Positions 4,111 to 58,096 of a stretch of 64,000 nucleotides of DNA are shown here, piece by piece; within the stretch, counting starts at the first letter, position 1; each line of letters starts with the position of its first letter. The translations under genes were made by a program, and so were the position numbers. The notes below the pieces were generated by a model. That model had not been told where the DNA came from. It saw nothing but the letters and a program-made list of their open reading frames with translations, and ran no database searches. Source of the stretch: Escherichia phage FL18; sequence record PP400780, one strand, 5' to 3'.

Positions 4111-4150
4111 TTGTTTACAAGGTCTATGGTTATGTTATTATAGACCTATC
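4111..4150 (+). promoter_or_regulatory. T4-type early promoter with stem-loop-embedded -10 (GGTCTA ... TAGACC)
   Basis: ttgtttacaaggtctatggttatgttattatagacctatc; inverted repeat GGTCTA/TAGACC flanks the -10. Confidence 0.5.
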
Positions 4151-4168
4151 AACTACTGGAGGTAAAAC

Positions 4169-4696: not shown

Positions 4697-4758
4697 ACGC
4701 TTTACCCAAGGACGGGTTATAATGGTTTTGAGTTCCAATTCAATCTGAGGAAATAGTT

Positions 4759-5754: not shown

Positions 5755-5811
5755 TGTACAACCAAGGATGGTTGGAGTATAATGAATCTATCTTAACGAG
5801 AGGAAAATATT

Positions 5812-7076: not shown

Positions 7077-7221
7077 AGAATATATGGAGACTGCTGAAAA
7101 GGCAGTCCGTGAATTAGCAATAGCTTATTATAATGAACATGGTAAATTTCCTGATAGATACAGCGTGCTTAAATCAGCTTTAACTCGTTCATATAAAAAA
7201 TATGCTATCAGAAGTAAGTGA
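7063..7221 (+). CDS. hypothetical small protein (52 aa)
   Basis: in-frame ATG inside ORF-track entry 6922..7221; the upstream part of that entry overlaps the previous gene. Confidence 0.3.
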
Positions 7222-8241: not shown

Positions 8242-8715
8242 ATGTTATTATCAGGCGCAAAATATAAAGAAGAAAAACAAAAATTTTATGATGCACAGAA
8301 TGGTAAGTGTCCTATTTGCCACCGTGAATTAGACCCTGATGTTCAAGGTAACCATCTTGACCACGACCACGAATTAAACGGGCCAAAAGCCGGTAGAGTT
8401 CGTGGATTACTCTGTAATCTGTGCAACGCAGCAGAAGGTCAAATGAAGCATAAGTTCAACCGTTCCGGTCTTAAAGGACGTGGTGTCGACTACCTCGAAT
8501 GGCTTGAAGCTCTTCTTGTTTATTTGAAACAAGATTATTCTGATAATAATATCCATCCTAATTTTGTTCCAGACAAAACTAAAGAGTTCTCAAGACTAGG
8601 TAAAGAGGAAATGATGGCTGAGATGCTTCAAAGAGGATTTGAATATAATGAATCTGACACCAAAACACAGTTAATAACTTCATTTAAGAAGCAGCTTAGA
8701 AAGAGTTTAAAATGA
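8242..8715 (+). CDS. 49: endonuclease VII (Holliday junction resolvase)
   Basis: 157 aa, near-identical to recalled T4 gp49 (MLL.GK.YKEEKQKFYDAQNGKC ... HLDHDHELNGPKAG). Confidence 0.9.
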   Translation: MLLSGAKYKEEKQKFYDAQNGKCPICHRELDPDVQGNHLDHDHELNGPKAGRVRGLLCNLCNAAEGQMKHKFNRSGLKGRGVDYLEWLEALLVYLKQDYSDNNIHPNFVPDKTKEFSRLGKEEMMAEMLQRGFEYNESDTKTQLITSFKKQLRKSLK

Positions 8716-9380
8716 ATGTAGTATATAAACTATCATTTATTAGTAGAATTAATGCTAAAACCCCGCCATATTATTATATTGGAAGTAAAACCAATTGCAC
8801 TTTTGACGGAACGAATATTATTGATAAAAATGGTAAATTTTATTATTCGTCTTCGTCATCTTCCGAATTTCAAAAAGCTTTGTTGAAAGAAACACCGAAA
8901 GTTGAAATATTATATTTTCAATTAGTCGGAGATGAACAAATAACTAGCATTGAAGCTGAATTTCAAAAGAATATAGAAAAAGATATATGGAATAAAGAGT
9001 ATTTTAATTTAGCATATGCTAATGGTCAATTTACAACGTACGGTGTTTCTCCTTCTAAAGAAACTAGAGAAAAGCAATCAATAACCATGATTAAAAGAAA
9101 TCGTAATAAAGGTAAAAATCATGGATTTTATGGAAAGCATCATACTAATTTAGCCAGAAAGAAAATATCAGAAGCTTCTAAAAAATACTGGAAAGAAAAT
9201 CCACATCATGGATTTTCGCACACAAAGGAAGCTAAAATTAAAATTGGAATTTCATCTTCTATCAGGCATAAAGGAAGTGGAAATCCGATGTACGGCGTAA
9301 AACCTTGGAAAACTCCTAGCGTTGTTCCATGGAATTTAGGTAAAATGAAAGAAATGGTAAAACGAGTAAAACATGCATAG
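8712..9380 (+). CDS. Seg-like homing endonuclease (GIY-YIG-like N-terminus, NUMOD-like repeats)
   Basis: VYKLSF ... YYYIGSK motif; repeated K/R-rich helix motifs; GNPMYG; paralogous to ORF 18918..19451. Confidence 0.55.
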   Translation: MNVVYKLSFISRINAKTPPYYYIGSKTNCTFDGTNIIDKNGKFYYSSSSSSEFQKALLKETPKVEILYFQLVGDEQITSIEAEFQKNIEKDIWNKEYFNLAYANGQFTTYGVSPSKETREKQSITMIKRNRNKGKNHGFYGKHHTNLARKKISEASKKYWKENPHHGFSHTKEAKIKIGISSSIRHKGSGNPMYGVKPWKTPSVVPWNLGKMKEMVKRVKHA

Positions 9381-10203
9381 GTATTATATAATTTATAAAA
9401 TAACAAATATAATTAATTCAAAGGAATATATCGGTGCGCATAGCACCGATAACATAAATGATGGTTATATGGGATCAGGAACATTGATTCGTGCCGCTTT
9501 ATTAAAATATGGTAGAAAAAATTTTAATAAAGAAATTTTACATGTTTTTGATAATGAAAAACAAATGTATGATAAAGAAGCTGAACTCGTAACCGAAGAG
9601 TATTGTCTAAAAGAAAATACATATAATATTAAACCTGGTGGAAAAGGTGGAACTGCCTATGAACAGACACTTGAACATCGCCGCAAAAATAGTTTAGCAA
9701 ATAAAGGTAAAAAGAGAACAGAAGAAACTAAAATAGCTATTTCACGTGCTTTAAAGAAATATAAACGTACGCCAGAGCATCAAGCAAATTTAAATAAAGC
9801 CGTAAGCATAGCTATGAAGCGAAAAGATGTTAGAAGTAAATTAGCTGGAGAGCGGTCTGAGAAAGATAAATTACCTATATCAAACGGTGTTAAAAAATAT
9901 TACAATTCTTTGAGTGAAGAAGAACGCGAACTTCATCGCAAGCGAATTATTGAAGGTAAAAAGAATTCTCCCATGTCATTGGAATCTAGACAAAAGCTTT
10001 CAAAAGCTTTAAAAGGACTTCAAGTTGGTTCAAAAAATCCAATGTATGGAAAAATTTCTCCAACTAGCAAAACCGTTTCAGTTGACGGTATTAAATATGA
10101 TTCAATTAAAAAGTGCTCAAATGCCATAAAAGTTTCTAGACATCTTATACTAAAACGCTGTAATTCTACTGATGAAGCTTGGAAAAATTGGATATTATTA
10201 TGA
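9373..10203 (+). CDS. GIY-YIG homing endonuclease (Seg-like)
   Basis: YYIIYKITNIINSKEYIGAHST (GIY ... YIG), downstream N/E residues, NUMOD3-like repeats (TEETKIAISRALK; SLESRQKLSKALKG; NPMYGK). Confidence 0.75.
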   Translation: MHRYYIIYKITNIINSKEYIGAHSTDNINDGYMGSGTLIRAALLKYGRKNFNKEILHVFDNEKQMYDKEAELVTEEYCLKENTYNIKPGGKGGTAYEQTLEHRRKNSLANKGKKRTEETKIAISRALKKYKRTPEHQANLNKAVSIAMKRKDVRSKLAGERSEKDKLPISNGVKKYYNSLSEEERELHRKRIIEGKKNSPMSLESRQKLSKALKGLQVGSKNPMYGKISPTSKTVSVDGIKYDSIKKCSNAIKVSRHLILKRCNSTDEAWKNWILL

Positions 10204-18249: not shown

Positions 18250-18285
18250 ACGCTTTAACATGATGTGGTTATAATGACCACATCA
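18250..18285 (+). promoter_or_regulatory. promoter with -10 TATAAT inside inverted repeat GATGTGG / CCACATC; MotA-box-like CGCTTTA upstream
   Basis: cgctttaacatgatgtggttataatgaccacatc. Confidence 0.45.
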
Positions 18286-18921: not shown

Positions 18922-19451
18922 TAATTATGAATTTAATATATCTTATAACCTTTTATAATCGTGAGATTAAAAATGAATACCCGTGTTATTATATAGGTTC
19001 TAAAGTTTCGTGTCATTTTAATGGAAAGGATATTATTGAAGATTCTACCGGTAAAATATATACCGGTAGTGTTAATTCCTCGTATTCTCCTTTATATAAC
19101 AGATTAATAGACCAAGGCGAATATTCTGTAAAAATTTTAGGCGAAACCACATTAGACCCTAGAAGAATAGAAAGACTATTCCAACTCAATGTTAAAGCCG
19201 TTTCAAATGAAAAATATTTTAATAAGGCTTATGCTAACGAGAAGTCTAGAATATCAGCTAAAGGATATGCACCGTATAAAAATTTAAAAACAGGCAAAAT
19301 AGTAAAACTTTCTAAAAACGAAATAAACGAAGATTACGTCGGTGTTAGAAAAAATTGCAAATTGTCGGAGAATCATTTAAACGCAATTAGAGAATTTCAA
19401 AAAAACATATTGGACCAAAGAACGAAGAGAGAAAGTTTCTATTCGTTCTAA
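18918..19451 (+). CDS. Seg-like homing endonuclease N-terminal module (paralog of 8712..9380)
   Basis: IYLITFYNREIKNEYPCYYIGSK ... KYFNKAYANEK parallels VYKLSFISRINAKTPPYYYIGSK ... EYFNLAYANG. Confidence 0.5.
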   Translation: MIIMNLIYLITFYNREIKNEYPCYYIGSKVSCHFNGKDIIEDSTGKIYTGSVNSSYSPLYNRLIDQGEYSVKILGETTLDPRRIERLFQLNVKAVSNEKYFNKAYANEKSRISAKGYAPYKNLKTGKIVKLSKNEINEDYVGVRKNCKLSENHLNAIREFQKNILDQRTKRESFYSF

Positions 19452-19455
19452 AAAA

Positions 19456-19818
19456 ATGTTTAACGATAGAGATTTTGCTTTAAAATTTAAAGATATAATG
19501 AATTCTCCTAATGTTAAAGATAAAATAAAAATATCTAAAACATTGTATTGGTCTAAACCTGAAAATAGAGCAAAGGCCTCTATCGCAGCTTCGAAAAGAA
19601 ATGCAACCAAAGAATTTAAGGATAAATTCAGAAAATCTAAAGCTAGAGGTACATGGATATTTCATGAACAAAAATTAAAGGAATTGTGGATTGCTTTAGG
19701 AAAACCAAGTTATATTACATTTAGAAAACATGCAATTCAGCATGGTTTTAATGATGAATCATACCAAGGTGCTATCCGGTCTTGGACAAATTATTATGCT
19801 AATAGGAAACCTAAATGA
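19456..19818 (+). CDS. basic DNA-binding-like protein; possible C-terminal part of split homing endonuclease
   Basis: starts 4 nt after the stop of 18918..19451 in a different frame; K/R-rich. Confidence 0.4.
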   Translation: MFNDRDFALKFKDIMNSPNVKDKIKISKTLYWSKPENRAKASIAASKRNATKEFKDKFRKSKARGTWIFHEQKLKELWIALGKPSYITFRKHAIQHGFNDESYQGAIRSWTNYYANRKPK

Positions 19819-20501
19819 AACTTAGCCGTGAAACCGTAAATATTCTGAAAAACTTCGCTTCTATTAACTCTGGCATTCTGCTGAGTCAAGGTAAATTTAT
19901 TATGACTCGTGCAGTTAATGGCACCACTTATGCGGAAGCAAATATCTCTGATGAAATTGATTTTGACGTAGCACTTTATGATTTGAATAGCTTCTTAAGC
20001 ATTTTGAGTCTAGTGTCTGATGATGCTGAAATTTCAATGCACACTGATGGCAATATTAAAATTGCAGATACACGTTCCACAGTTTATTGGCCTGCCGCTG
20101 ACAAGAGCACCATTGTTTTTCCTAATAAGCCAATTCAATTCCCAGTGGCTTCTGTGATTACTGAAATTAAAGCTGAAGACCTTCAACAATTGCTTCGAGT
20201 TTCACGTGGACTTCAGATTGATACAATTGCTATTACAAATAAAGATGGTAAAATTGTTATCAATGGCTATAATAAAGTTGAAGATTCCGGACTAACTCGT
20301 CCTAAGTATTCTTTGACTCTTACTGATTATGACGGTTCTAATAACTTTAACTTCGTAATCAATATGGCTAATATGAAAATCCAGCCAGGTAACTATAAAG
20401 TAATGTTGTGGGGAGCTGGTGATAAAGTTGCAGCTAAGTTTGAAAGCTCTCAAGTAAGTTATGTTATTGCGATGGAAGCCGATTCTACTCACGACTTCTA
20501 A
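19815..20501 (+). CDS. 45: sliding clamp gp45
   Basis: 228 aa, near-identical to recalled T4 gp45 (MKLS..T...LKNFA.INSGI ... EADSTHDF). Confidence 0.95.
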   Translation: MKLSRETVNILKNFASINSGILLSQGKFIMTRAVNGTTYAEANISDEIDFDVALYDLNSFLSILSLVSDDAEISMHTDGNIKIADTRSTVYWPAADKSTIVFPNKPIQFPVASVITEIKAEDLQQLLRVSRGLQIDTIAITNKDGKIVINGYNKVEDSGLTRPKYSLTLTDYDGSNNFNFVINMANMKIQPGNYKVMLWGAGDKVAAKFESSQVSYVIAMEADSTHDF

Positions 20502-20534
20502 GTCAAAGCTTTACGTTTATTGTGATACGATTAT

Positions 20535-20582
20535 GGAGGAGAAATCCTCCAGTTTAATGATAATGAGGAAAATTACATGATT
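20535..20582 (+). promoter_or_regulatory. intercistronic hairpin (GGAGGA-GAAA-TCCTCC) and putative RegA operator at gene 44 start
   Basis: hairpin 20535-20550; sequence AAAATTACATGATTACT around the gene 44 ATG resembles the T4 gene 44 RegA target. Confidence 0.35.
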
Positions 20583-34943: not shown

Positions 34944-35004
34944 GGGTTTACATCTTCCTCTAGGCATGATATGATGTACTTACACAAACCAAGAGGAAAA
35001 CATT

Positions 35005-35379
35005 ATGAATATGTCTCAAGCAATTTTTACTGCAATCACCGAAAACACAACTGTTGAAGTAGTTTCTCCGCTGGCAACCTACGTTATTCTTGCTCCTAAA
35101 ACTATTGTATCTCGTATGGAAAACATGGGCAAACGTATCGTACAAATTGTTGGAGCTGGAAATCAAAAACTTGATTATCTACGAACCATCAAAGCTTATG
35201 AACATTTCCAACTCGAAAAAGGTTCTCCTATCCAGGTAGAACTCGTAAATGGTGATATCGTTCGAGCAATGTTCCATCATTTCTATGCATTGAATGACCC
35301 ATCTAAAGCGGTTCGTTTAATTGCATATGACGCAAACCAAAACGAAATCAACGCAGATGTATCTAAATTACGTTTTTAA
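35005..35379 (+). CDS. hypothetical protein (124 aa)
   Basis: ORF with GAGGA SD. Confidence 0.5.
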   Translation: MNMSQAIFTAITENTTVEVVSPLATYVILAPKTIVSRMENMGKRIVQIVGAGNQKLDYLRTIKAYEHFQLEKGSPIQVELVNGDIVRAMFHHFYALNDPSKAVRLIAYDANQNEINADVSKLRF

Positions 35380-35380
35380 G

Positions 35381-35426
35381 TTTACTTCTCCGGTAGTTGT
35401 GTTATTATAGATCTATCAACTACTGG
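35381..35426 (+). promoter_or_regulatory. T4-type early promoter with -10 between long inverted repeat (CCGGTAGTTG / CAACTACTGG)
   Basis: gtttacttctccggtagttgtgttattatagatctatcaactactgg. Confidence 0.5.
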
Positions 35427-35434
35427 AGAACAAA

Positions 35435-35752
35435 ATGAAAACCATCGATTGTAAAGCAGAATTTAAGATTTTTTATCATGGTTCAAGTAGTTCAGCTAAC
35501 ATCGAAAACATGCTTTGTCCTCCTGAAGAAACAGGAGTTCTGTCTGAAACTGGACGTAAGAAAAACTTGGATCGTGTATTCTTTACTGAAGATATCGGTT
35601 TAGCAAAGATTTATGCAGGACGAGCAGCACGCTCTTATGGAGGTGAACCACGTCTCTATCGAGTAATTTCTCCGGTAGATGTAGTTCAAATGAATGATAC
35701 TAAAGGTGCTACAGTTTATCACGCTGAATGGGCATTTTGCGAGGAAATATGA
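35435..35752 (+). CDS. hypothetical protein (105 aa)
   Basis: ORF-track entry. Confidence 0.5.
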   Translation: MKTIDCKAEFKIFYHGSSSSANIENMLCPPEETGVLSETGRKKNLDRVFFTEDIGLAKIYAGRAARSYGGEPRLYRVISPVDVVQMNDTKGATVYHAEWAFCEEI

Positions 35753-36894: not shown

Positions 36895-36936
36895 CTTGTT
36901 TACATTATAGATGGACTATGGTATAGTAGTCCTATC
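36895..36936 (+). promoter_or_regulatory. T4-type early promoter with -10 in stem-loop (GGACTA TGGTATAG TAGTCC)
   Basis: cttgtttacattatagatggactatggtatagtagtcctatc. Confidence 0.5.
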
Positions 36937-42102: not shown

Positions 42103-42263
42103 AAGAGAAATTGAAAGAGAAATTCTTACTAGAAATCAAGGAAAAAGACTTTGAGACATGGTATCGAATGGTGAAAGGGTTGACATTGCTTTTTAAAACA
42201 TCCTTATTCATGTTAGAACAACCTGGCCCTGATGGACCTTTAGTAGGAAAGCTTAAAAAGTAG
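42099..42263 (+). CDS. hypothetical protein (54 aa)
   Basis: in-frame ATG within ORF-track entry 42075..42263. Confidence 0.35.
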   Translation: MKEKLKEKFLLEIKEKDFETWYRMVKGLTLLFKTSLFMLEQPGPDGPLVGKLKK

Positions 42264-42318
42264 TTTACATTCCCTCCTCTCGTGTTATGATAGGCTTATC
42301 TTTAAATGGAGGACTATC

Positions 42319-42900
42319 ATGACATGTCAATCTGAACTTCAAGAACGCGAATACCTAACAAATCTGATTGATAGCAAATTCACCCGCCAAGAACAAAACA
42401 TTCTCTGGGCTTGCACCGATTCTAAGGAAGACCCGGATTTCCACTATGAATTAGACCATCTTGTTCGTAAGCATATGACTTCTACAGTACCAATAGAACT
42501 CTACCGTGGTGTAACTCCTGAAGAAGTAGAACGTCTTTCCCTTCTTTCTGTTGGATGTCATTGGTCTCCTGGACGAGTAACATCGTTCACAACTGATTTC
42601 AGTACAGCTCGTCAATTCTCTGGGAGTTGGGAATATCAGACGTACACTATTCTTAGTCTCAGGAATGCTCCATTCATTTTTGATTACTACCAAAACATGA
42701 TTAACATTGTACTTGCCGGAAAGAACCCTAAGCATGTTATGGAAGAAAAGCGTGTTGACGTCCTAGATATGATTGAATCTGAACAAGAGTATATGGTCTC
42801 AGGTATCTCTAGATTTGAGATTGTGGAAATTGAAGACTTAGAATATGACCCTTTATCTCGATTATACAAAATCATTCATTTGAAAATGTTGAATTTTTAG
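42319..42900 (+). CDS. Mod-like ADP-ribosyltransferase (R-S-E type)
   Basis: YRG ... TSFTTDFSTA ... ESEQEYM (Arg, S-x-S, E-x-E elements); synteny with T4 modA/modB between soc and dda. Confidence 0.55.
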   Translation: MTCQSELQEREYLTNLIDSKFTRQEQNILWACTDSKEDPDFHYELDHLVRKHMTSTVPIELYRGVTPEEVERLSLLSVGCHWSPGRVTSFTTDFSTARQFSGSWEYQTYTILSLRNAPFIFDYYQNMINIVLAGKNPKHVMEEKRVDVLDMIESEQEYMVSGISRFEIVEIEDLEYDPLSRLYKIIHLKMLNF

Positions 42901-46781: not shown

Positions 46782-46813
46782 AGTTTACAACCAAGGACGG
46801 TTGGAGTATAATC
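46782..46813 (+). promoter_or_regulatory. T4-type early promoter cassette GTTTACAACCAAGGACGGTTGGAGTATAAT
   Basis: near-identical copies at 5755-5783 and 47339-47371. Confidence 0.55.
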
Positions 46814-48294: not shown

Positions 48295-48296
48295 AA

Positions 48297-48348
48297 TTGT
48301 TTACTTCTCCTCTGGTTTTGATATTATAACCATATCAACCAGAGGAGA
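48297..48348 (+). promoter_or_regulatory. T4-type early promoter with -10 flanked by perfect 11-bp inverted repeat (CTCCTCTGGTT / AACCAGAGGAG)
   Basis: ttgtttacttctcctctggttttgatattataaccatatcaaccagaggag; 3' arm contains the SD. Confidence 0.55.
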
Positions 48349-48353
48349 ATAAT

Positions 48354-48878
48354 ATGTTAGTTTACCGCGTAGAACGTAGTTTTTGTACTCAACGTGAATC
48401 ATTACCAGGAATTGCTATCGAAGACGGTAAAGCCGTCAGAATTTGGGAAACCTCTTGGAATAAAGAACCTCGCTCGCCATACGGTTGGTCGGGTGCCGAC
48501 AACTCTGAAGAAACATGGGAGTTCCTTGATAAACATGGAATAATCTCAGGTAACTTCTACCATCACGGCGACAACTATAATGTCCCTAATCGTCCTACAG
48601 TAAATGAAGACAAACTCCTTGAACAAAATATCTTAAGATACTATAGAATTGAGCACGCATTTGAATTGAGTGAAGATTGGGCTCAAGGGTTCTATTTTGG
48701 ATTTGAAAGTGTTGACGCGGTTTATGCATGGTTTGATGACCAGGTGGATGTTGAACTCTTGAAAGCTAAAGGATACTACATCGCGGTCTATGAAGCACCT
48801 GATTTCATCCTCGGAAGTTGTCAATTAATGTTTAGACGTTCATTGGCAGAACAAGTTGATTTTATTTTGCTAAAATGA
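48354..48878 (+). CDS. hypothetical protein (174 aa)
   Basis: ORF-track entry. Confidence 0.5.
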   Translation: MLVYRVERSFCTQRESLPGIAIEDGKAVRIWETSWNKEPRSPYGWSGADNSEETWEFLDKHGIISGNFYHHGDNYNVPNRPTVNEDKLLEQNILRYYRIEHAFELSEDWAQGFYFGFESVDAVYAWFDDQVDVELLKAKGYYIAVYEAPDFILGSCQLMFRRSLAEQVDFILLK

Positions 48879-48879
48879 T

Positions 48880-48929
48880 GTACAACAACTATGGTCTATG
48901 ATACTATAGACCTATCAAAACAAGAGGAG
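48880..48929 (+). promoter_or_regulatory. T4-type early promoter with stem-loop (GGTCTA / TAGACC) and conserved leader
   Basis: tgatgtacaacaactatggtctatgatactatagacctatcaaaacaagaggag. Confidence 0.5.
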
Positions 48930-52106: not shown

Positions 52107-53207
52107 ATGAAAGTTATGTTTATCCCATCTCGCGCAGTCCCATTTAACCCAGAACGTGTACAAGGTGGTCTTGAAGCAGTACATTTAAATGTGTTGAAAT
52201 ATCTTGTGTCCATCGGTGCTGATATTGATTATATCGGCTTTGATAATGACACGTTTGGTGACTGGAAGGTTAATCATCATCCTGTTGGTCATCTGACTAA
52301 ATTCAGTCTAGGTATGAGTTATACTATGGCTCGTAAGATTGTTGAACTAGCCGGCATTAATGAGTACGATTTCGTTGTTACAATGGAACCGACCAAACTA
52401 ACCGTTCAGGCAATTAAAGACGCAGGTCTCTCTAAAGTTCATAAGAATTTTATGGCAACACCATTTGAACCAGTATCTCGTGGCATTGTTCAAATTTGGG
52501 ACCAGACTATTCAAATTCATAAGAACGGTGGTAAGAGTTATGCTCCTACTAAAGCCTTCCGTGAATTTGAACGCAAATATTGTTATATGACTTCAGGTCT
52601 GACTGACAAAATTGATTATGATTATTGGCGAGCAAATCCGTTGTTTGAAGCCGAAGATTATCCGGTTATTTGTTTGAATGATAAACCTGAAGTTCTTCCG
52701 GCGACGGATCTGATTATTAGTGCACAACGTTATGACACTAAAATGCGTCGTACTGATGTTGCTCTTGAAGCGATTAAAGCACTAGGCGAAAATGGTGCAG
52801 GATACTGTCCAAGCAAATGGGCGCCACCGGCTAAATATCCTGTTATTATTGATGCTCCACACAGTGAAATTATGGAACGTCTTAAAACAGCTAAAGCACT
52901 TATTAATACGTGTCCTGACACAGGTACGGTAGAGAATAGTTCTATTGAAGCCATCTCTAAAGGTGTCCCTGTAATCCAGTTAGTTTTTAAGGATTATCCT
53001 CATGCGACATTTGAATACGACCCAGATACTGTGCGTGTAGAAATTGATTCCTCTACTCCTAAGAAAGAAGTAGTTGCGCTTTACACAAAAGCTGTATTAG
53101 AATTCACTGACACATACGAAGCTCGAGTTAAACGTGCTGAAGCTGTATGGAAGAAGTATAACCGAGATGCAGTTGTTGCGATGTGGGATAAAATCTTCAC
53201 AGCGTAA
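52107..53207 (+). CDS. putative glycosyltransferase (GT-B fold, GT4-like)
   Basis: N-terminus MKVMFIPSRAVPFNPERVQGGLEAVHLNVLKYL and C-terminal ENSSIEAISKGVPVIQ resemble GT4 N-terminal and EX7E-region motifs; judged by eye. Confidence 0.45.
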   Translation: MKVMFIPSRAVPFNPERVQGGLEAVHLNVLKYLVSIGADIDYIGFDNDTFGDWKVNHHPVGHLTKFSLGMSYTMARKIVELAGINEYDFVVTMEPTKLTVQAIKDAGLSKVHKNFMATPFEPVSRGIVQIWDQTIQIHKNGGKSYAPTKAFREFERKYCYMTSGLTDKIDYDYWRANPLFEAEDYPVICLNDKPEVLPATDLIISAQRYDTKMRRTDVALEAIKALGENGAGYCPSKWAPPAKYPVIIDAPHSEIMERLKTAKALINTCPDTGTVENSSIEAISKGVPVIQLVFKDYPHATFEYDPDTVRVEIDSSTPKKEVVALYTKAVLEFTDTYEARVKRAEAVWKKYNRDAVVAMWDKIFTA

Positions 53208-53512: not shown

Positions 53513-54325
53513 ATGATTATTGAAACGGCTAAAGAAACGATTATTGGTTCTGGTGGTAAAAGCACAGCATTTACTATTCAAGGCAATAGCAAAGTTTATA
53601 AGATTTTGTCTAATGACCTTTATACAAACAAAGAATTGGCTTGTGTACGTGAATTAATCACAAACTGTATCGATGGACAAATTCTTAATGGTTGCACTGA
53701 TAAGTTTATTGTTCAGGCTCCAGGTCGTTTAGACCCACGTTTTGTAGTTCGAGACTTTGGTCCTGGTATGAGTGATTTCACCATTCGAGGTAATGACGAA
53801 GAGCCAGGAATCTATAACTCATATTTTGCTTCAACTAAAACATCGAGTAACGATTTCATTGGTGGATTCGGACTCGGCTCTAAAGCTCCACTAGCATATA
53901 CCGATACGTTTAACATTACTTCTTATCATAATGGTGAAGTTCGTGGTTATGTAATTTATCAAGATGACAGTGGTCCACAGATTAAGCCAACCTTCGTAGA
54001 TAAGATGGGTCCTGATGACCGGACCGGCGTTGAAGTAGTTGTGCCTGTTAACCCAGAAGATTTTGAAAAGTTCGCATCCGAAATTGCATATGTTATGCGT
54101 CCTCTAGGTGATATTGCAGAAGTTCGCGGTGTTAAAGATATCAAATACTTTCCTGAATTCGATGATGTTTATTTAGCCAAGGAAGCTCCATGGGGTGAAC
54201 GTGGTAATATCATGGCTGTTTATGGTGGTATTGTATATCCAATCGGAAGTGTTATTAAAGAACAAACCTGGATGATGACGCGATGCACACTACGGCTGGT
54301 TAGAATGCAACGAAGTTGTTATTGA
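53513..54325 (+). CDS. rIIA: rIIA-like protein, N-terminal GHKL ATPase domain (apparently truncated/frameshifted)
   Basis: GHKL N-box ELITNCID, G1 box DFGPGM, G2 box GGFGLGSK; only 270 aa before stop versus about 725 aa in T4 rIIA. Confidence 0.6.
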
Positions 54326-54467
54326 AATCCCACCGGTAGATGCAGAATATCTTGAAGAAGGAGACCGCATTTATTTTGGCGAACTACACATCAGAGGTAT
54401 CTATGGTAAAGACGAACTTGGGGCTGTTGAGGCTGAAGAGTCTTCCGACATTTATCCTGTCGAATGA
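54279..54467 (+). other. open frame-0 segment plausibly continuing rIIA after a +1 frame change
   Basis: translation [40 protein letters not shown]... resembles recalled T4 rIIA region ...NWLSIRNEVNYIKFP... Confidence 0.35.
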
Positions 54468-54960
54468 GTTTTTGACTAGCGAAATGAAGGTTAAGATCGC
54501 TGATACTGCTCGGTACTCGTTGAAACAAGATCCAGACCAAAACAAAGAAGATGTAGTTCGACGTTGTAAGGTTGCGGTCTTTGCAGAGTATGTAGTAGCA
54601 AATTGGCTAGACGGATATGTTAATAAAGGTATTGAAGACGTAGAAGACCCGTACACGTATGCATGGGACGTGTTAGCCCATCCCAAGTATTGTGGAATTC
54701 GTGTAGAAGTCAAGACACACCAGATAGATTCTAAATGGATTTCGGTTACCACAGGATACAGTGGTGATTATCCGGGTGGTAATGGAATCAATATAGGGCC
54801 CTTCCTTAATCATCGAGTCGCAGATTGCATTATTATATTAGATGTCAAAGAAACCTCACCTGACGTCTTCTCTTATTCTATAAAGTTCGTGGGAGACCAT
54901 GAAGACCTAAAGAAAATCGTCCGTAAGAGCAACTACAACGGGTGGTATCTTCATCTTTAA
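54340..54960 (+). CDS. hypothetical protein in a third frame (possible rIIA C-terminal remnant or separate gene; weak PD-(D/E)xK-like signature)
   Basis: AWDVLAHPKYCGIRVEVKT contains D ... E-x-K pattern; first ATG downstream of the frame-0 stop is at 54481. Confidence 0.4.
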   Translation: MQNILKKETAFILANYTSEVSMVKTNLGLLRLKSLPTFILSNEFLTSEMKVKIADTARYSLKQDPDQNKEDVVRRCKVAVFAEYVVANWLDGYVNKGIEDVEDPYTYAWDVLAHPKYCGIRVEVKTHQIDSKWISVTTGYSGDYPGGNGINIGPFLNHRVADCIIILDVKETSPDVFSYSIKFVGDHEDLKKIVRKSNYNGWYLHL

Positions 54961-54970
54961 TTTCATAAAA

Positions 54971-55010
54971 ATGTTTACAACTAAGTAGGACTATGATATA
55001 GTAGTCCTAT
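54971..55010 (+). promoter_or_regulatory. T4-type early promoter with -10 in stem-loop (AGGACTA TGATATAG TAGTCCT)
   Basis: atgtttacaactaagtaggactatgatatagtagtcctatc. Confidence 0.5.
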
Positions 55011-55482: not shown

Positions 55483-55525
55483 TTGTTTACATCAAGGTAG
55501 GATTATGGTATAGTAGTCCTATCAA
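55483..55525 (+). promoter_or_regulatory. T4-type early promoter with -10 in stem-loop (same cassette family as 36895 and 54971)
   Basis: ttgtttacatcaaggtaggattatggtatagtagtcctatc. Confidence 0.5.
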
Positions 55526-55745: not shown

Positions 55746-55781
55746 TTGTACAAACTCTTGAGAGCAGAGTATAATGCTCTC
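55746..55781 (+). promoter_or_regulatory. T4-type early promoter with -10 TATAAT between inverted repeat GAGAGC / GCTCTC
   Basis: ttgtacaaactcttgagagcagagtataatgctctc. Confidence 0.5.
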
Positions 55782-55819
55782 ATGGATTACAAAAACATTA
55801 ATCAATTGAGGAAATTAGC

Positions 55820-58050: not shown

Positions 58051-58096
58051 AGTTTACACGTGCTTCAAACATGATATTATAGACCTATCAAAACAA
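58051..58096 (+). promoter_or_regulatory. early/middle promoter upstream of motA (GTTTACA, TGCTTCA MotA-box-like, conserved leader)
   Basis: agtttacacgtgcttcaaacatgatattatagacctatcaaaacaa. Confidence 0.5.

Follow-up and report, generated by a model that had tools for sequence, protein, structure and literature searches.

The 64,000-nucleotide (nt) stretch of Escherichia phage FL18 analysed here (sequence record PP400780; hereafter the window) has Mosigvirus (RB69-group) T4-like phages as its closest kin, at 97–98% identity, and carries approximately 114 genes. Gene-by-gene comparison with T4 and RB69 placed an early region on the + strand (nrdC, 49, 55, 47/46, 45/44/62, 43, uvsX/41, dmd/imm/sp, 61, 56/soc, modB, srd/dda/dexA, the motB family, cef/goF, 39, rIIA, denB/ndd, 52 and motA), after which come the late genes t/38/37 on the - strand. 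Here we describe inverted repeats that bracket promoters in this early region, in particular a cassette upstream of a homolog of motB.2 in which the promoter spacer is complementary to the Shine-Dalgarno (SD) sequence of the gene. The resulting helix exists far above chance expectation and has been kept by compensatory change in several genera.

The promoter cassette upstream of motB.2

The cassette (+ strand) has the -35 hexamer GTTTAC (48299–48304), which is also found in orthologous or paralogous cassettes of RB69, IME08, T4 and Kp17-11. Directly after it, filling the promoter spacer, lies an anti-SD tract, TTCTCCTCTGGT (48305–48316), that forms the 5' arm of an outer helix, and this is followed by an extended -10 element (TGA; 48319–48327) with the hexamer TATTAT (48322–48327), such that the promoter as a whole (GTTTAC, 17-bp spacer, TGn-TATTAT) is of the sigma-70 early type. 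Transcription is predicted to start at 48334, inside the hairpin and downstream of its 5' arm, by a rule that places +1 at 7 nt after the -10 element and that matches the mapped T4 starts of P45.2 (33257, as also given in Hinton's review), P39 (5349) and P45 (32626) exactly. The 3' arm, ACCAGAGGAGAA (48338–48349), contains the SD GAGGAG (48342–48347), and the 174-aa motB.2 homolog occupies 48354–48878. An 11-bp perfect repeat had originally been predicted at 48307–48348; the repeat exists and is in fact longer, at 13 bp (TTCTCCTCTGGTT/AACCAGAGGAGAA). We refer to this geometry, in which the 5' arm directly follows the -35 hexamer and the 3' arm includes the SD and stops 3–6 nt before the ATG, as class B.

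Folding of the intergenic RNA that would arise by read-through (48295–48357) gave -23.9 kcal/mol with a z-score of -6.6, and 0 of 200 shuffles were as stable. The predicted structure combines the 12-bp outer helix (48305–48316/48338–48349) with a 6-bp inner helix (48319–24/48332–37), and the same hairpin was the centroid in a 131-nt context, while RNA beginning at the predicted start was unstructured (z +0.4). Read-through into the cassette is expected: the genes ahead of it are closely packed, no terminator separates 48300 from the preceding promoter (46807), and only 4 nt lie between the preceding stop codon and the -35 hexamer.

Comparison of orthologous P-motB.2 helices revealed TTCTCC-TCTGGTT/AACCAGA-GGAGAA in the window and RB69 and TTCTCC-TCATG/CATGA-GGAGAA in IME08 (Dhakavirus); the T4 helix needs two G.U pairs and one bulge. 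Klebsiella phage 17-11 (Jiaodavirus) has a paralogous cassette, 83% identical and with an unrelated gene behind it, that keeps the helix with one G.U pair. Covariation of the class-B helix spans Mosigvirus, Dhakavirus, Tequatrovirus and Jiaodavirus as well as further unassigned T4-like contigs.

A protein-anchored search of IMG/VR with the motB.2 homolog returned just three near-identical loci. In an extension test, IMG/VR and a metagenome collection were scanned with only GTTTAC+TTCTCC, TAnnnT and GGAGAA fixed, and pairing was scored at the free neighbouring positions, a cassette being counted as real when an ATG followed the core by 2–8 nt (n = 49). The helix was extended by at least 4 bp in 18 of these 49 cassettes and by at least 5 bp in 14, and at least seven unrelated extension sequences occurred among them. 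Extension by at least 4 bp was seen in 0–1 of 49 when the partner was slid by 1–4 nt, in 3% of swapped pairs and in 1 of 15 ATG-less chance matches. RNAalifold found the helix on a MAFFT alignment with double changes at 5 of 10 pairs, although this alignment consists of chosen helix-bearing cassettes and is illustrative only. Outside the two fixed cores, class-B cassettes were not significantly enriched (5 vs 2.2 expected).

Predicted masking of the ribosome-binding site in read-through RNA

Besides the motB.2 cassette (-10 at 48322), the window holds one other strong class-B cassette, at 35403, and two weaker ones, at 42286 and 34970, all on the + strand. The cassette at 35403 (35380–35437) has GTTTAC, the -10 hexamer TATTAT (35403–35408) and an ATG at 35435, and its arms, TTCTCCGGTAGTTG (35386–35399) and CAACTACTGGAGAA (35417–35430), form 14 bp; the repeat reported earlier at 35390 is thus present and extends to this length, with one G.U pair (G.T in the DNA). 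Its read-through RNA folds at -20.5 kcal/mol (z -4.6). The cassette at 42286 (42263–42321), upstream of a modB-like gene, pairs TCCTC (42275–79) with GAGGA (42309–13), and its minimum free energy fold pairs the -10 region with the start codon instead of the anti-SD with the SD. The cassette at 34970 (34946–35007) pairs TTCCTCT (34955–61) with AGAGGAA (34992–98) and has a UUCG terminator ahead of it. Cassettes whose folds were not individually significant (42286, 34970, 48902, 46807) were not counted as firm members of their classes.

The cost of opening the ribosome-binding site (RBS), calculated as the energy needed to open ATG-14 to +2 in read-through RNA and in the promoter's own transcript, was 21.9 vs 3.2 kcal/mol at 48322, 16.3 vs 3.2 at 35403, 11.6 vs 3.5 at 42286 and 7.0 vs 2.6 at 34970. 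In these thermodynamic models, the RBS is masked only in the long RNA. The masked segment also resembles the RegB targets that lie in early intergenic SDs of T4: compared with the strong RegB site GG*AGRAYARAA, which secondary structure protects from cleavage, the 3' arm upstream of motB.2 matches at 10 of 11 positions and the SD at 35403 at 11 of 11. A tie between this consensus and class B specifically was considered and dropped, as the match is good without being exclusive.

We lean towards the interpretation that the class-B hairpin insulates translation, and probably RegB cleavage as well, from read-through transcription. The anti-SD in the spacer would pair with the gene's own SD 20–30 nt downstream, leaving the -10 element and the start site in the loop. 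RNA initiated upstream and reading through would contain both arms and could form a hairpin of -24 kcal/mol that buries the RBS, together with the segment that matches the RegB consensus. RNA from the embedded promoter would begin in the loop, and its SD would be free because the 5' arm is missing. Under this scheme, translation of motB.2 and its later inactivation by RegB would be limited to immediate-early RNA made from its own promoter, and read-through delayed-early or middle RNA would carry motB.2 silent and intact. In this scheme, we infer the start position, the effect on translation, the protection from RegB and the biological purpose.

A masked SD could also serve translational coupling, in which it would be opened in the long RNA only by a ribosome finishing the upstream gene. 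SD-masking hairpins that are melted by upstream ribosomes are a known mechanism of coupling, and in class-B cassettes the upstream stop codon does lie 6–11 nt before the 5' arm. A terminating ribosome unwinds approximately 6 nt past the stop codon, however, and the arms begin 7 and 11 nt past it, such that at most the first of 12–14 bp would be opened in stems that are very stable (-20 to -24 kcal/mol). Coupling also offers no reason for a strong promoter in the loop, and we consider it improbable.

Inverted repeats elsewhere in the window

The T4-type early motif GTTTAC-N16-18-TAnnnT occurred 22 times in the window against 2.4 expected, a number reached in 0 of 100 shuffles, and 20 of the 22 occurrences were on the + strand, which bears out the earlier claim that GTTTAC-type early promoters recur through this DNA. 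Only this motif is informative for promoter calling; a scan of the window with the generic sigma-70 consensus was uninformative, with 64 matches vs 63.5 expected and hence no enrichment. Mapping yielded 28 intergenic promoters, of which 20 were early and 8 had a MotA box. At 8 of these 28 promoters the -10 element is bracketed by a perfect stem of 7 bp or more, compared to 0.73 expected and a maximum of 4 in 1000 spacer shuffles, and the 5' and 3' halves of promoters paired five times more commonly when cognate (28.6%) than when non-cognate (5.7%). The shuffle excess and the pairing of cognate halves indicate that the inverted repeats are not due to chance.

All seven repeats cited in the original prediction were found, with small transcription errors in their reported sequences, and its description of such cassettes in many intergenic regions is fair given that approximately 10 of 28 promoters, about one third, have them. 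The further statement that they bracket most of the small accessory open reading frames (ORFs) does not hold at approximately 10 of 28 promoters in a window of some 114 genes. The 3' arm overlaps the SD in several cassettes, as stated; the examples had nevertheless been presented as a single architecture, and they mix at least two geometries with differing consequences, SD masking (class B) and a clamp on the -10 element (class A). In both of these, and in a third arrangement described below, the 5' arm, if not more of the hairpin, precedes the start site of the promoter itself. Stems that bracket the -10 element are also present at some T4 promoters (P-dmd, 10 bp; P-motB, 7 bp).

In class A, the 5' arm lies in the spacer just upstream of the -10 element, and the 3' arm begins on the last two -10 bases and ends at about the start site, just upstream of the SD and 15–28 nt before the ATG. 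Its members, all on the + strand, are six early promoters (4136, 36922, 48902, 54997, 55509 and 55770) and one MotA-type middle promoter (18270). At 4113–4147, AGGTCTAT (4120–27) and ATAGACCT (4140–47) form 8 bp around TATTAT (z -2.0; reported at 4121). Around TATAGT at 54973–55009, TAGGACTA (54986–93) pairs with TAGTCCTA (55002–09), also over 8 bp (z -3.0; reported at 54987), and the same 3' arm (55514–21) recurs at 55485–55521 opposite TAGGATTA (55498–505) with an internal U.G pair (z -4.0). P-ndd (55746–55782) has an 8-bp clamp, TGAGAGCA (55759–66)/TGCTCTCA (55775–82), around TATAAT (z -3.6; reported at 55760). The repeat reported at 36914 is shorter than was claimed, with just 6 bp, GGACTA (36913–18)/TAGTCC (36927–32), around the TATAGT of P-sp (36898–36932; z -2.3). 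P-cef (48879–48912) carries GGTCTAT (48893–99)/ATAGACC (48906–12) around TACTAT, a fold that was not individually significant. The clamp at 18252–18285 (z -5.0) pairs TGATGTGGT (18261–69) with ACCACATCA (18277–85) over 9 bp around TATAAT. Its repeat, reported at 18262, had been assigned to an early promoter; by position, the site (CGCTTTA-N12-TATAAT) is orthologous to T4 P45.2, which has been mapped as a middle promoter that depends on MotA.

Pairing persists at orthologous promoters although the arms differ in sequence. P-motB has GGGACCA/TGGTCCC in T4 and GAGAGCCA/TGGCTCTC in IME08; P-cef has GGTCTAT/ATAGACC in Mosigvirus, GGTAGGGTA/TACCCTATC in IME08 and a 12-bp TCAGTAGTTGAT/ATCAACTACTGA in T4; and P45.2 has TAGAG/CTCTA in T4 compared to TGATGTGGT/ACCACATCA in the window. 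Among 67 cassettes not picked by the search pattern, a clamp of at least 7 bp was present in 12, vs 0.83 expected. Because true orthologs pair through different arms and clamps are enriched, class A is a selected structure, of 6–10 bp, which leaves the RBS open (difference in opening cost about 0–2 kcal/mol) and which, like class B, can form only in read-through RNA. Candidate roles are a 3'-end barrier after cleavage by RegB or RNase E, or an attenuator.

Two further observations concern these clamps. The ndd cassette (55746–55790) is approximately 75% identical to the motB promoters of T4 (~7150–7200) and IME08 (L008, ~4125–4165), which lie at different loci before different genes; it belongs to a dispersed set of paralogous cassettes, between which compensatory swaps distinguish the arms. 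On the - strand, the P-cef clamp (48893–48912) scored as terminator-like, a 7-bp stem followed by ATAGTTGTTG, which is probably incidental.

The barrier role leads to a broader explanation, in which the hairpins, especially those of class A, act as processing or stability punctuation that shields the 3' end of the upstream cistron after a RegB or RNase E cut, and might also guard the SD of the long transcript from RegB, with no role in translation. In early mRNAs, RegB cleaves GGAG within intergenic SDs, and secondary structure prevents this cleavage; class-A stems end where a barrier to 3'-exonucleases would sit; and class A covaries at orthologous promoters while leaving the RBS unmasked, and is enriched as described. 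Such punctuation gives no reason for the exact placement of the clamp on the -10 element and start site, and for class B it overlaps with insulation from read-through instead of competing with it. As a full account it seems to us somewhat unlikely.

The third arrangement is a hairpin wholly within the spacer (ACAACC-AAGGAY-GGTTGG), found at 46807, 5778 and 4718. These spacer hairpins (46793–46808, 5765–5780 and 4706–4718, as well as RB69 P-motB) share the loop AAGGAY while their stems covary (ACAACC/GGTTGG, ACATCC/GGATGG and ACCC/GGGT), and were individually non-significant by folding. Many early promoters, with or without an inverted repeat, also have a conserved block after the -10 element, AGACCTATCAA or AGTCCTATCAA, that often runs on as TATCAACTACTG (for example at 2386–2396, 4142–4158, 35409–35428 and 58081–58091, and in T4 at imm.1 and upstream of cef), which suggests a shared signal in the initially transcribed region. 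An SD-like GGAGGA and an anti-SD form a leader hairpin (20534–20551, TGGAGGA-gaaa-TCCTCCA) downstream of the MotA-type promoter before gene 44. The real SD lies further downstream, and this hairpin differs from classes A and B in being wholly inside the promoter's own transcript. Rfam covariance models gave 0 matches in the window at the gathering score.

Gene shuffling, known systems and biological meaning

Composite cassettes of an early promoter with a stem-loop and an SD have been published as promoter-early stem-loops (PeSLs) and taken as terminators and recombination sites (PMC2839356, PMC4122927). Their stems, G-run/C-run stems in RB49 and phi1, lie between -35 and -10 or overlap the -10 element in those phages, or just upstream of the promoter in PST and T4 (Arbiol et al. 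2010, Comeau et al. 2014). The cassettes described here resemble PeSLs, as originally predicted, in being composites of an A/T-rich upstream region, a sigma-70-type early promoter, a stable stem-loop, and an SD and ATG at the 3' end in a T4-type phage; they are repeated through the early region, have paralogous copies before unrelated genes and show some association with gene presence or absence. The stems differ in lacking terminator signatures, and in position they agree only in part: the motB.2 stem reaches from the spacer as far as the SD and encloses the entire -10 element and start in its loop. The spacer hairpins (46807, 5778) and -10 clamps fit the description of RB49 in this respect. 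The PST/T4 arrangement is matched by separate classical terminators, with a G+C stem, a UUCG loop and a U-run, upstream of other promoters (2310, 11611, 12578, 14996, 22476, 34917, 40738, 50184, 52065 and ~58040).

According to the PeSL proposal, the stem-loop terminates or attenuates upstream transcription, and the main role of the cassette is to let homologous recombination shuffle the genes on its flanks. In its favour, one published RB49 stem-loop lowered lacZ in the manner of a strong terminator, and mini-circles, the expected product of recombination between neighbouring PeSLs, have been found. The bracketing stems sit in short intergenic gaps (54–76 nt) without a separate terminator, and of the seven promoters that have a UUCG terminator ahead of them, just one carries such a stem. 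A cistron with a masked RBS would, if untranslated, be open to Rho polarity, such that class B could also look like an attenuator. However, no U-tract follows any of the bracketing stems, after which the sequence reads UAAUAUG or UAUCAAAA, and the terminator scan, which does call the separate UUCG terminators, called no class-B hairpin on the sense strand. The class-B helix, moreover, always uses the SD and stops 3–6 nt before the ATG, which would be needless for a terminator or recombination site.

With regard to shuffling, the homology of relatives ends exactly at the edges of the motB.2 cassette; in phage phi25-307, motB.2 is missing and the cassette is a chimera of a 5' half of class-B type and the 3' half of the cef cassette, joined in the TACTATAGACCTATC core; and near-identical cassette families recur before unrelated genes at unrelated loci and in other genera. 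These breakpoints agree with the modular gene shuffling that had been invoked. By contrast, 0 of 4 indel junctions between the window and RB69 (8716–10200, 18924–19841, ~40460 and 54288) are at a cassette, by which cassette-mediated indels between these two were rejected, and the denB-ndd stretch with its three clamps is conserved in about 150 genomes. Evidence for gene shuffling by these cassettes is thus limited. Recombination would explain conservation of sequence, but not compensatory change that keeps pairing. Overall, we regard the PeSL proposal as an unlikely main explanation for these helices.

Further observations concern gene content. Between gene 49 and nrdG (8712–10203) lie two ORFs of 222 and 276 aa with GIY-YIG/seg-like N-termini, the second 46% identical to T4 SegA; RB69 NrdD as a tblastn query had zero matches anywhere in the window, so nrdD is absent; nrdG is kept. 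At 18927–19818, two ORFs (174 and 120 aa) are inserted relative to RB69 between rpbA and gene 45, the former with a GIY-YIG-like N-terminus similar to that of the ORF at 8712, and the borders of the insertion carry no promoter cassette. At 53513–54960, rIIA is shortened to ~270 aa and abuts denB almost directly, with rIIB lost entirely along with the 3' two-thirds of rIIA; among 166 matching phage records, this junction (~54282–54288) is common only to Escherichia phage AV116 (OR352946), and the remaining records align only from ~54282 onward. A 366-aa ORF (52107–53207) between gene 39 (fused 60+39, 605 aa) and rIIA.1 is the counterpart of RB69 ORF003c, with no counterpart in the 1–50 kb region of T4.

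Several observations weigh against insulation from read-through as the function of class B. The RB49 stem-loop that acted as a terminator in a published reporter assay points to a possible transcriptional role. RBS masking involves just two strong and two weak cassettes of the 20 early promoters, and the weak folds are not individually significant (42286, z -1.2; 34970, z -0.2). The helix is reduced to its 6-bp core in some relatives (L032/L036) and has a mismatch at RB69 ORF040c, and the match to the RegB consensus is not specific to class-B or hairpin-bearing promoters. A strand test of RNA vs DNA gave 5 G.U, 3 A.C and 5 other internal mispairs, and an excess of G.U at helix ends (P about 9e-5) was traced to conserved promoter bases on the loop side.

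The strand test bears on whether the repeat might act as DNA, extruding as a cruciform or being bound so as to modulate or shut off the promoter. Inverted repeats are symmetric and thus compatible by sequence with DNA hairpins, and the mechanism that shuts off T4 early promoters has been described as not understood. At outer helix ends alone, G.U and A.C pairs numbered 4 and 8, and the G.U-vs-A.C tally was rejected as a discriminator, being confounded by conserved promoter bases. Arm sequences differ at every promoter, by which a common protein operator was rejected, and stems this short with loops of 6–19 nt are generally poor cruciform formers. We take class B to act as RNA because the SD, an RNA signal, forms one arm and helices containing G.U are retained; a DNA-level function appears very improbable.

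The most plausible target of control by the motB.2 helix is translation. Arbiol et al. 2010 (PMC2839356) does not contain the words translation, ribosome or read-through, and translation is undiscussed in the PeSL papers. The working principle is already known from other systems. For the T4 genes e, soc, 49 and I-TevI, RNA started far upstream holds the SD and/or AUG in a helix, and a promoter within the 5'-strand sequence yields transcripts that lack that strand and are translated (reviewed by Uzan & Miller 2010, PMC3014915). The class-B cassettes are alike in that the SD is predicted to pair in upstream-initiated RNA and the predicted internal start is downstream of the 5' strand. They differ in that the T4 genes use a gp55 late promoter and block early translation, whereas the promoters here are sigma-70 early (with one clamp on a middle promoter), the 5' arm is the promoter spacer itself and the predicted effect is the mirror image, expression being confined to the immediate-early burst.

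A comparable arrangement exists in IS10 and IS50, where a sigma-70 start lies between complementary segments and external transcripts, in which the upstream segment pairs with the RBS, are untranslated. This fold-back inhibition, which reportedly protects transposase from external read-through transcription, is said to have been described by Davis, Simons and Kleckner in 1985. There it is found at a transposon end, in a single copy per element, compared to a recurring cassette of phage early operons with a probable link to RegB. What appears to be new is a helix around a sigma-70 early promoter that uses the anti-SD as its spacer, although earlier mention in the T4 literature is possible, and its recurrence as a cassette kept by covariation across T4-like genera.

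Immediate-early genes need a short burst of expression yet sit in long operons that continue to be transcribed from early and middle promoters further upstream. Should the hairpin act in the proposed way, confinement of the burst would require no protein factor, long transcripts would stay intact despite RegB, and PeSL-type cassettes would gain a role beyond termination and recombination. For annotation and engineering, a gene moved without its cassette, or a cassette placed behind a strong promoter, may show a non-obvious change in expression. As a more tentative possibility, hairpins that straddle promoters might serve T4-like phages as a general 'origin-of-transcript' code, written as an anti-SD in the spacer of a strong early promoter; this would add a layer of temporal control that has gone unrecognised. 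Under such a code, only RNA initiated at its own early promoter would allow a cistron to be translated and cut by RegB; the read-through copy of the cistron would be silent, RegB-proof and possibly an entry point for Rho, and the clamps and spacer hairpins would be related insulators that act on the ends of RNA. Mismatches between transcript and protein timing, for which there is no explanation, have been noted for T4, and an origin code, if it exists, could account for part of them.

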